64,000 nt of DNA from Escherichia coli (GTDB lineage: Bacteria > Pseudomonadota > Gammaproteobacteria > Enterobacterales > Enterobacteriaceae). The notes under the pieces were generated by a model. The model was given only the letters and a program-made list of their open reading frames with translations. It had not been told where the DNA came from and did not search any database. Shown here one piece after another: positions 18,599 through 20,224 of this stretch. The DNA lies in assembly GCF_041886205.1 (NCBI RefSeq), contig NZ_CP169029.1; one strand, written 5' to 3'. The first letter of the stretch is position 1; each line of letters opens with the position of its first letter. A program made the translations under genes and the position numbers.

Positions 18599-20224
18599 AT
18601 GAAAGCAATTCACAATCTGATTAGAAACATCTCTTCAAGCCATCAAGATAAGCATTCAGATAAAGTCAACAATCATCAATACCATGGCAAGGTTGATAAA
18701 AAACATCTTTCAAAGATAGTTGAAATTGATAAGCTGGATAAACATTCGCAAATAGATAACGATTTTGGCCTGCATATCATCTATTTCCTGCAACATGGCT
18801 GCTGGAAGGTAAATGAACATAGTCCTCAGATAGAAAAAATATGGTTTTACAATAGTGAGCCATCTATAGATATTCAAAAATATAATAGTTTCGCCGACAA
18901 TACTACTGACACGTTTATCTTTACAATTATACCAGACAATAACCATGTGATAAAATTATCGTCTCCCATTACCGTTACGACTGAGCGTAAGGACGGTTAT
19001 TATTTTATTAATTTCTCCGGAGATAAATCAGACATAATTTATAAATCAGACATAATTTATAAATCAGACATAATTTATAAAGTTAATGGGCTTTCTATCA
19101 TACCTGAAAATTTCTTTACTCTTCTTAGCGGTAATTTTAAAGCTGACTGGCGTTGGGATGTCTCTAAAGAGACGTTTCCTAAGGATAAGTTTGATAGCTA
19201 TGTTAATACTGTGTTTTCAAAAATAGACTTTTATAAACAGTGTGGTGTGATTAACCCACAAAATGCCAACACGGCTTATTTTGGCGATACAGATGGAAGA
19301 GTAGGCGCAGTACTTTATGCATTGCTCGTTTCAGGGCATATAGGCATCAGGGAAAAGGGTTGGAGTTTATCATGTGAATTATTAAAACACGAAGACATGG
19401 CTTCATCTGCATACAAACATAAAAATAATAAATTGCTCTACGATTTATTAAATACGAGAGACATGATATTGAATGAGTTGCATCAACATGTTTTTTTAAA
19501 GGACGATGCGATAACCCCTTGTATCCCCCTTGGGGATCATACAGGCGATAGATTTAGTACTATTTTTGGTGATAAATATATCCTTACTTTGCTAAATTCT
19601 ATGCGAAATATGGAGGGTTATAAAGATAGCCGTATTAATAAAAATGTCGTCGTTCTGGCTGGAAATCATGAAATCAATTTTAATGGTAACTATACTGCAC
19701 GACTAGAAAATTATAAACTCTCTGCCGGTGATACGTATAACTTAATTAAAACGCTCGATGTTTGTAATTATGACTCAGAAACTAAAGTTTTAACCAGTCA
19801 TCACGGAATAATAAGAAATGAAGAAAATGAATGTTATTGTCTCGGTGCTTTGCAGGTTCCATTTAATCAGATGAAAGACCCAATTGATCCTGAGGAATTA
19901 GCAAATATATTTAATAAAAAACATAAACAACACATGGATGATCGTCTTATCCATCTAATTAGAAGCAATGCTATAGCATCCACACCTGTATATGACAATT
20001 ATTTTAATAACACTACTGCTTTCAGACCAAAACCTGAAGATATCTTCAAATGTGGACAGACGCTCAAAAAAACTAAACAGAAATATGGCCATTATGGATT
20101 AGGGGTAGATCAGCATCAAAAAATTGATAATTATACCATGGGGCTAAATTCCTGGAAGATAGCTCCTAACGAACGTGGTGATAAAAAAGGTGTCCCAGGG
20201 CTTAGTTGTTTTCAACCACATTAA
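18599..20224 (+). CDS. yhiL: DUF4049-like protein YhiL (intact paralog of YhiJ; PPP-phosphoesterase-like motifs)
   Basis: Track ORF 569 aa (18515); probable start MKAIHNLI at 18599 gives 541 aa; shares YFGDTDG, LGDxTGDRFS, LAGNHE blocks with YhiJ; AT-rich. Confidence 0.8.
   Translation: MKAIHNLIRNISSSHQDKHSDKVNNHQYHGKVDKKHLSKIVEIDKLDKHSQIDNDFGLHIIYFLQHGCWKVNEHSPQIEKIWFYNSEPSIDIQKYNSFADNTTDTFIFTIIPDNNHVIKLSSPITVTTERKDGYYFINFSGDKSDIIYKSDIIYKSDIIYKVNGLSIIPENFFTLLSGNFKADWRWDVSKETFPKDKFDSYVNTVFSKIDFYKQCGVINPQNANTAYFGDTDGRVGAVLYALLVSGHIGIREKGWSLSCELLKHEDMASSAYKHKNNKLLYDLLNTRDMILNELHQHVFLKDDAITPCIPLGDHTGDRFSTIFGDKYILTLLNSMRNMEGYKDSRINKNVVVLAGNHEINFNGNYTARLENYKLSAGDTYNLIKTLDVCNYDSETKVLTSHHGIIRNEENECYCLGALQVPFNQMKDPIDPEELANIFNKKHKQHMDDRLIHLIRSNAIASTPVYDNYFNNTTAFRPKPEDIFKCGQTLKKTKQKYGHYGLGVDQHQKIDNYTMGLNSWKIAPNERGDKKGVPGLSCFQPH
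19025..19078 (+). repeat. perfect 18-bp x3 in-frame tandem repeat inside yhiL
   Basis: aaatcagacataatttat x3 encoding (KSDIIY)3. Confidence 0.9.

Follow-up and report, generated by a model that had tools for sequence, protein, structure and literature searches.

The yhiL gene and its tandem repeat

The sequence analysed here is a 64,000-nt stretch of Escherichia coli DNA (the window), in which a short tandem repeat lies inside an intact ortholog of yhiL (Table 1). The gene order yhiN-yhiM-yhiL-yhiJ-yhiY-yhiI identifies by synteny the host gene as the yhiL ortholog and its paralog as yhiJ, and the start codon is the same as that of the RefSeq CDS in strain LHM10-1. The encoded protein comprises an N-terminal DUF6860 match, which is reported as two stretches because the repeat array interrupts its C-terminal end, and a DUF4049 domain (PF13258) assigned with 530 bits against a cut-off of 25. 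The yhiL-yhiJ block has a GC content of 32-35% compared with 50-60% in the flanks, and in K-12 this region carries H-NS-bound 'promoter islands', of which the intragenic yhiL island scored positive for H-NS binding (PMC3661553). Of 5,426 complete E. coli genomes, 1,247 lack the yhiL region. The gene is frameshifted in K-12, 268.2, O104:H4, 504237, SW07096 and RM9245, and the exact K-12 frameshift occurs in at least 1,008 genomes.

Table 1. Positions of the repeat array, its host gene and neighbouring features in the window
Feature	Position	Strand	Remarks
yhiM (DUF2776)	17164..18216	-	Divergent neighbour fixing synteny; Pfam and gene order
yhiL ortholog	18599..20224	+	Intact here; 541 aa plus stop
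Pfam DUF6860 match	18716..19051	+	Residues 40-151, in 2 stretches
Left ATAAA microhomology	19023..19027	+	Brackets the unit at 18-nt spacing in the single-copy allele
Three 18-nt units of AAATCAGACATAATTTAT	19025-19042, 19043-19060, 19061-19078	+	Encode (KSDIIY)3, YhiL residues 143-160
Right ATAAA microhomology	19077..19081	+	Completes the periodic extent 19023-19081
Pfam DUF4049	19259..20212	+	Residues 221-538; GDTDG / GDHTGDR / GNHE motifs; putatively PPP-type metallophosphatase-like
Common K-12-type frameshift site	19816..19840	+	GAAAATGAATG here, GAAAA-AAATG in K-12; intact in the window
yhiJ paralog (DUF4049)	20486..22108	+	About 12 residues more than single-copy YhiL at the repeat-homologous position

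Reading of the sequence and a coordinate check show that window positions 19025-19078 consist of three copies of AAATCAGACATAATTTAT with no mismatch. The array is in frame, the distance from the ATG at 18599 to position 19025 being 426 nt or 142 codons, and its translation is KSDIIYKSDIIYKSDIIY, residues 143-160 of 541. TRF reports the head-to-tail copies of one unit that characterize a VNTR (19023-19081, period 18, 3.3 copies, 100% matches, score 118), and the additional 0.3 copy arises because ATAAA flanks the array at both ends. This is the sole perfect array among the four TRF rows of the window, with a score of 118 compared with 52-53 for the others, and its 59 bases of perfect tandem sequence compare with a longest stretch of 18 bases elsewhere in the window. 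The chance expectation for 36 consecutive matches at one lag, calculated for the whole 64-kb window with yhiL composition, is ~6e-14, and a chance origin of the array is excluded. An assembly artefact is ruled out, since five complete genomes, each assembled independently, and one metagenome contig contain the same array.

A preliminary description of this DNA had presented the repeat as perfect, in frame within yhiL and unusual. Sequence, TRF and translation agree on the first two points, and the array does stand out among its surroundings. Its placement in that description, within the variable N-terminal half and ahead of the conserved motif blocks, is correct in its second part, as the array is upstream of the DUF4049 motifs; its first part needs amendment, since the array is not in the most variable stretch and instead occupies the C-terminal edge of DUF6860 and the beginning of the gene's conserved central part.

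Copy number among E. coli genomes

Copy number was surveyed in the 5,426 complete E. coli genomes with a 454-bp locus query centred on the array and with repeat-only megablast probes, which seed only where at least two units adjoin. The locus was found in 4,179 genomes; just five matches reached at least 99%, and most fell short of the query length by 36 bp and a few by 18 bp. The repeat-only probes identified 310 genomes with at least two units, five of them with three. A single copy is present in approximately 3,869 of the 4,179 loci (~92.6%), two copies in 305 genomes (7.3% of loci) and three copies in 5 genomes (0.12% of loci), all of the last within the window's own lineage. Arrays of four or more units were found in none of the 5,426 genomes, the longest periodic extent being 59 bases, or three units. 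The K-12-type unit has GAT for GAC and could not be seeded by the GAC probes; a probe specific for it found no expansion in the complete genomes. These alleles and their frequencies are direct observations, and isolates consequently differ by whole units at one locus (1, 2 or 3 units, 4,179 genomes) in the manner of a VNTR. The comparison across strains proposed in the preliminary description thus reveals a copy number that is not invariant. As a separate observation, yhiL of K-12 and O157 has one unit, and the array would be invisible to repeat finders run on those genomes.

The two-copy class is itself heterogeneous, with 14 genomes carrying perfect units and 291 carrying an ATT to ACT change in the second unit (KSDIIY-KSDITY); this ATT-ACT form is also present in O104:H4 and in a Shigella sonnei protein cluster with 2,416 members. 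An exact scan for three units in 241 million metagenome records returned one contig, with exactly three units and belonging to the LHM10-1 sub-lineage, and no array of four or more units. Five YhiL alleles had no exact match in a 15-billion-protein collection, probably reflecting other start codons chosen by gene callers, and this result is uninformative on frequency.

The three-unit genomes come from diverse hosts, namely LHM10-1 (pig, China), XJ5.2 (cattle, China), CP52E (human, Thailand), 6EVA (human, Singapore) and wlxctx60 (Asian black bear, Japan), and each has a yhiL gene 2-5 SNPs removed from that of the window. The six best matches to the upstream 17 kb of the window are precisely these five and VE-T9 (Viet Nam, two units), and the three-unit allele therefore marks one small lineage, on whose background VE-T9 is the sole two-unit genome. 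The window is almost identical to wlxctx60 (100.0% over window 1-17000; 4 mismatches over 15023-23081). LHM10-1, CP52E, 6EVA and the metagenome contig carry a sil/pco island inserted at a site corresponding to about window position 16828. BLAST rules out this island in the window, which has the ordinary gorA-arsA-prlC-dtpB-pitA-yhiN region.

Gain and loss of repeat units

Two pairs of sister genomes separate changes in length from substitutions. VE-T9 (two units) and wlxctx60 (three units) have 0 SNPs in yhiL (1.6 kb) and are distinguished over 8,059 bp by 5 SNPs and one 18-bp gap, whereas 268.2 (two units, ATT-ACT) and SW07096 (one unit, ACT) have 0 SNPs in yhiL and differ over ~8.1 kb by 1 SNP and one 18-bp gap. 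Length thus changes independently of substitutions, by expansion and by contraction, as is expected of a VNTR, and both the differences of one unit between identical backgrounds and the signature of contraction are observed directly. The single-unit ACT allele, found in only two genomes (SW07096 and RM9245), is best read from these sequences as the collapse of the common two-unit ATT-ACT allele. A parsimonious series would lead from ATT to ATT-ATT (14 genomes), then to ATT-ACT (291) and finally to ACT (2), the final step being a contraction. The difference between VE-T9 and the three-copy genomes may represent either a gain (2 to 3) or a loss (3 to 2), as the three-taxon SNP pattern is star-like.

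The array is very probably a low-copy, in-frame coding minisatellite (VNTR) that owes its origin and its length changes to replication slippage or unequal exchange between units and is most likely neutral. All single-unit alleles have ATAAA on either side of the unit, in the arrangement GAG-ATAAA-TCAGACATAATTT-ATAAA-GTT, and read ATAAATCAGACATAATTTATAAA. The ancestral state would accordingly be a single 18-nt unit within a 5-nt direct repeat; mispairing between the ATAAA copies could have generated the two-unit allele, whose 36 nt of perfect homology may have allowed a further slip to the three-unit allele of the window's lineage, and slips the other way would remove units. Each step would gain or lose exactly six residues (KSDIIY), so that the frame is kept. 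We infer slippage as the molecular event, and the order from one to two to three units, from the end states of the alleles; the step from one to two units may have occurred once or several times, both being compatible with the data. The founding event also fits microhomology-mediated tandem duplication, as the single-copy allele has ATAAA exactly one unit apart and the junctions fall there. Slipped-strand mispairing without frameshift, which the preliminary description had anticipated from a unit length that is a multiple of 3, agrees with these results in that the differences are always whole 18-bp units with the frame kept and that they separate otherwise identical alleles by one unit.

An alternative is that copy-number differences arise mainly through homologous recombination importing existing alleles, and not through repeated slippage in situ. 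The yhiL gene is a clear recombination mosaic, with haplotypes ~9% apart that diverge mostly in alignment columns 1-400 and 1200-1665 and with breakpoints near columns 400 and 1200. The array is located just inside the intervening block; columns 400-600 show no differences among the window, S43, NCTC11023, 268.2, O104:H4 and the single-unit 504237, and the one-, two- and three-unit alleles share an identical local haplotype of ~200 bp around the array. Because this ~200 bp is identical among several otherwise 9%-diverged haplotypes, a short gene-conversion tract could also move a two-unit array between backgrounds without a SNP trace, and the one-unit ACT allele of RM9245 does occur on a mosaic background. 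We nevertheless consider import unlikely to be the main source of the differences. Each new state needs at least one in-situ event, the three-unit state is confined to one lineage and so cannot have been imported, and the one-unit ACT region of SW07096 is identical to 268.2 over ~8.1 kb bar 1 SNP, with no common donor for an allele known from two genomes. Recombination surely shuffles the alleles, but it can neither create the states nor explain SW07096.

The changes attributed to slippage appear to be infrequent. A minimum of four changes in length accounts for all 4,179 loci, the two-unit ATT-ACT array is the same in 268.2 and O104:H4 although their yhiL genes are 20 SNPs apart, and none of the 291 genomes with this allele has expanded to three units. 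Judged from these alignments, the array does not appear to be hypermutable and its dynamics would be slow. A rate near 1e-7 per generation is suggested, as a crude order-of-magnitude value, given a single length change for every few flanking SNPs in 8 kb, and this is orders of magnitude below contingency loci. The phase-variable contingency loci of Haemophilus, Neisseria and Campylobacter resemble the yhiL array in their repeat-mediated, reversible length change by slippage. They have units of 1-7 nt in long tracts and switching rates of 1e-2 to 1e-5 per generation, and they usually act by toggling frame or promoter spacing. The yhiL array, by contrast, has an 18-nt unit in at most three copies and is stable across alleles divergent by 20 SNPs; its length change does not toggle expression as at a contingency locus, since the 18-nt unit keeps every allele in frame.

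The YhiL protein and the significance of the repeat

The likely consequences of added units can be considered from the protein, although the AlphaFold models of YhiL are modest (mean pLDDT 62-63) and derive from shallow alignments of 15-16 sequences. The model of the window allele reduced to one unit has KSDIIYK as a strand (E144-150) following strands E124-131 and E134-140, whereas the three-unit model shows no strand at residues 143-153, where pLDDT is <50. With low confidence, the unit may therefore form the third strand of a small beta-meander that ends the N-terminal DUF6860, and the extra units are predicted, also with low confidence, to loop out. Six-residue insertions are probably tolerated at this site, because YhiJ is naturally ~12 residues longer at the same position.

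The remainder of the protein provides limited insight into function. A Foldseek comparison of the DUF4049 model (pLDDT 62) with Legionella WipA/WipB (5n6x, 5nny) gave E ~3e-4 and prob 1.00, with TM-scores of only 0.28-0.45 and an identity of 12-15%, followed by ApaH. The alignment contains the motif variants GDTDG, GDHTGDR and GNHE in YhiL/YhiJ (reference motifs GDxHG / GDxxDR / GNHE), and YhiJ has a weak T4SS_Wip profile match of 18 bits, far under the 300-bit cut-off. No Pfam metallophosphatase match was obtained, and a PDB sequence search was without a match at E up to 1. In its predicted fold DUF4049 may resemble the Legionella WipA/WipB PPP-type effector phosphatases, which would be the nearest relatives of the host protein and not of the repeat. 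Only 52 representatives of this tiny family occur among 1.84 billion proteins, and the sole published functional hint is a myo-inositol growth phenotype of a yhiJ knockout (PMC3423039). This very narrowly distributed, AT-rich, fast-evolving and often pseudogenised paralog pair is in our opinion more interesting than the repeat.

Constraint on yhiL is weak. Between intact alleles dN/dS is 0.55-0.96 over the gene and ~0.8-1.7 in codons 1-140, the latter resting on only 4-6.5 synonymous differences; a value near or above 1 in the N-terminal part could mean diversifying selection instead of relaxation. Because the gene is weakly constrained and often already inactivated, we regard the copy-number polymorphism, with moderate confidence, as most likely selectively neutral. 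Nothing in the tempo, the pseudogene and absence counts or dN/dS points to a function of copy number.

Selection has nonetheless to be weighed, in the form of an adaptive contingency or length-switch locus where copy number tunes YhiL activity, partner binding or recognition, for example through diversifying selection on the N-terminal domain. The dN/dS of ~1 or higher in codons 1-140 and the strongly mosaic, highly diverged nature of the locus are in keeping with such a role, as are the retention of the reading frame in every allele and the intactness of all sampled yhiL alleles of the three-copy lineage, many one- and two-copy alleles being frameshifted. We judge it very unlikely, given that only three states exist, with a maximum of three units and 92.6% of loci at one, and that the commonest expanded allele carries an interrupting SNP, is unchanged across a 20-SNP divergence and into S. 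sonnei, and resides in frameshifted pseudogenes (268.2 and O104:H4). No N-terminal signal peptide is evident on reading of the sequence, which argues against a surface antigen, and no PADLOC defence match was obtained for YhiL, YhiJ or YhiM. A specific version, which we hold to be slightly more doubtful again, is that diversifying selection acts on DUF6860 of a WipA/WipB-like phosphatase and that the KSDIIY array is a selected, length-variable beta-hairpin altering target or partner recognition; were it true, one E. coli lineage sampled in Asia would possess its own functional variant in the form of the intact three-copy allele. Finally, the AT-rich units might act as DNA, as promoter-like or protein-binding sites in an H-NS-bound 'promoter island' with copy number tuning transcription, but despite the low GC of the region, the H-NS-positive yhiL island of K-12 and a sigma-70-like match created at the unit junctions (CAGACA-16 nt-CATAAT, 9 of 12, at 19029-19056 and 19047-19074), this is highly improbable, as the number of promoter-like matches does not exceed chance (13 vs 9.3 +/- 2.9 in shuffled sequence), both matches within the array being weak, the DNA fold is weak and no different from shuffles (z = -1.36), changes are confined to whole coding units, in line with slippage, and no conserved feature lies where such a promoter could drive it.

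As a probable slippage product in a dispensable gene, the array shows the behaviour of an ordinary polymorphism that changes slowly, and not that of a functional switch. Its closest counterparts are the coding VNTRs used for E. coli MLVA (GECM-10 loci CVN001-CVN017), which share a unit that is a multiple of 3, whole-unit differences between strains and slipped-strand mispairing as the usual explanation; CVN002 has the same 18-bp period. The yhiL array is much less polymorphic than these loci (3 alleles, maximum 3 copies, 92.6% single copy). It is not itself a known GECM-10 marker, as 0 of the 20 primers (PMC8143711) match the window at up to 3 mismatches. The literature searched contained no paper tying yhiL to a tandem repeat and none naming DUF4049. 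The significance implied by the preliminary description is overstated, because expanded alleles are rare (7.4% of loci), limited to three copies and slow to change, and the host gene is often a pseudogene or absent.

The array is a genuine but ordinary low-copy coding VNTR, one more for E. coli and of little importance alone. Its alleles may still be of practical use: the three-unit allele is a possible cheap marker of a small lineage sampled from pig, cattle, human and bear in East and South-East Asia, and the ATT-ACT two-unit allele is a possible tag for a large group including O104:H4 and S. sonnei. With the birth, growth, interruption and collapse of a repeat at one site, the locus provides a clean natural example of these events.

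Mosaic structure and length variation of yhiL

Comparison of yhiL (window 18599-20224) with the corresponding sequences of other strains (L002-L014, L017 and L018) shows the gene to be a strong recombination mosaic. Haplotypes are approximately 9% apart in the first 400 nt at the 5' end and the last 450 nt at the 3' end, the centre is conserved, and dN/dS ranges from 0.55 to 0.96. Typical E. coli core genes are far less diverged and more constrained.

The K-12 pseudogene lesion consists of a substitution and the loss of 1 nt within GAAAATGAATG (window 19816-19840), where the window allele is intact; this exact lesion version is found in at least 1,008 of the 5,426 complete genomes surveyed. 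Another in-frame 18-bp length polymorphism lies close to the 3' end of the gene, near window 20070 (alignment columns 1490-1507), where K-12-like alleles carry GGTGAAGACCCCAGCAAA and the window does not. This stretch is not tandemly repeated. The O157 gene has a 3-bp indel close to the stop codon.

Repeat junctions and other tandem arrays

As the unit of the three-copy (KSDIIY)3 array in yhiL is 18 nt long, CAGACA and CATAAT are brought together at each unit junction with a 16-nt spacing (window 19029-19056 and 19047-19074), forming a weak sigma-70-like match (9/12) that the single-copy allele lacks. These junction matches show no excess over the chance level for the AT-rich yhiL region. Three further arrays in the window are imperfect (see table). 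In strain LHM10-1 (L016), the hicA toxin gene adjoining hicB is annotated as frameshifted (L016 27470-27744, homologous to window 27470-27744).

DUF4049 proteins and imperfect tandem arrays in the window
Feature	Window position	Motifs or location	TRF score
DUF4049 of YhiL	19259-20212	GDTDG / GDxTGDR / GNHE	
YhiJ (DUF4049)	20486-22108	GDTDG / GDxTGDR / GNHE	
13 bp x3.4 array	27415-27459	immediately upstream of hicA-like gene	52-53
15 bp x2.2 array	43380-43412	within ftsY	52-53
18 bp x2.1 array	61728-61764		52-53

The sil/pco island

Comparison of L016 1-16800, L005, L006 and L011 placed a sil/pco copper-silver resistance island in the gap between yhiN and yhiM (insertion point approximately window 16828) in LHM10-1, CP52E and 6EVA, which are close relatives, and in O104:H4 as well; within the LHM10-1 island, pcoS contains an IS3 element. 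At the same spot NCTC11023 carries IS3 and a TnsA remnant. The island is absent from the window, wlxctx60, XJ5.2 and the two-copy relative VE-T9, and was therefore gained inside the three-copy lineage, later than the origin of the repeat allele.

The DUF4049 family

The DUF4049 AlphaFold model has its top matches in two effector phosphatases from Legionella, WipA (5n6x) and WipB (5nny), with E ~3e-4 and probability 1.00 at TM-scores of just 0.28-0.45, followed by E. coli ApaH; YhiJ, the paralog of YhiL, also matches NCBIfam T4SS_Wip weakly (E 1.2e-3). The family comprises just 52 representatives among 1.84 billion proteins, and no mention of DUF4049 was found in the literature searched. The sole published hint on this family is that a yhiJ knockout did not grow on myo-inositol (PMC3423039).
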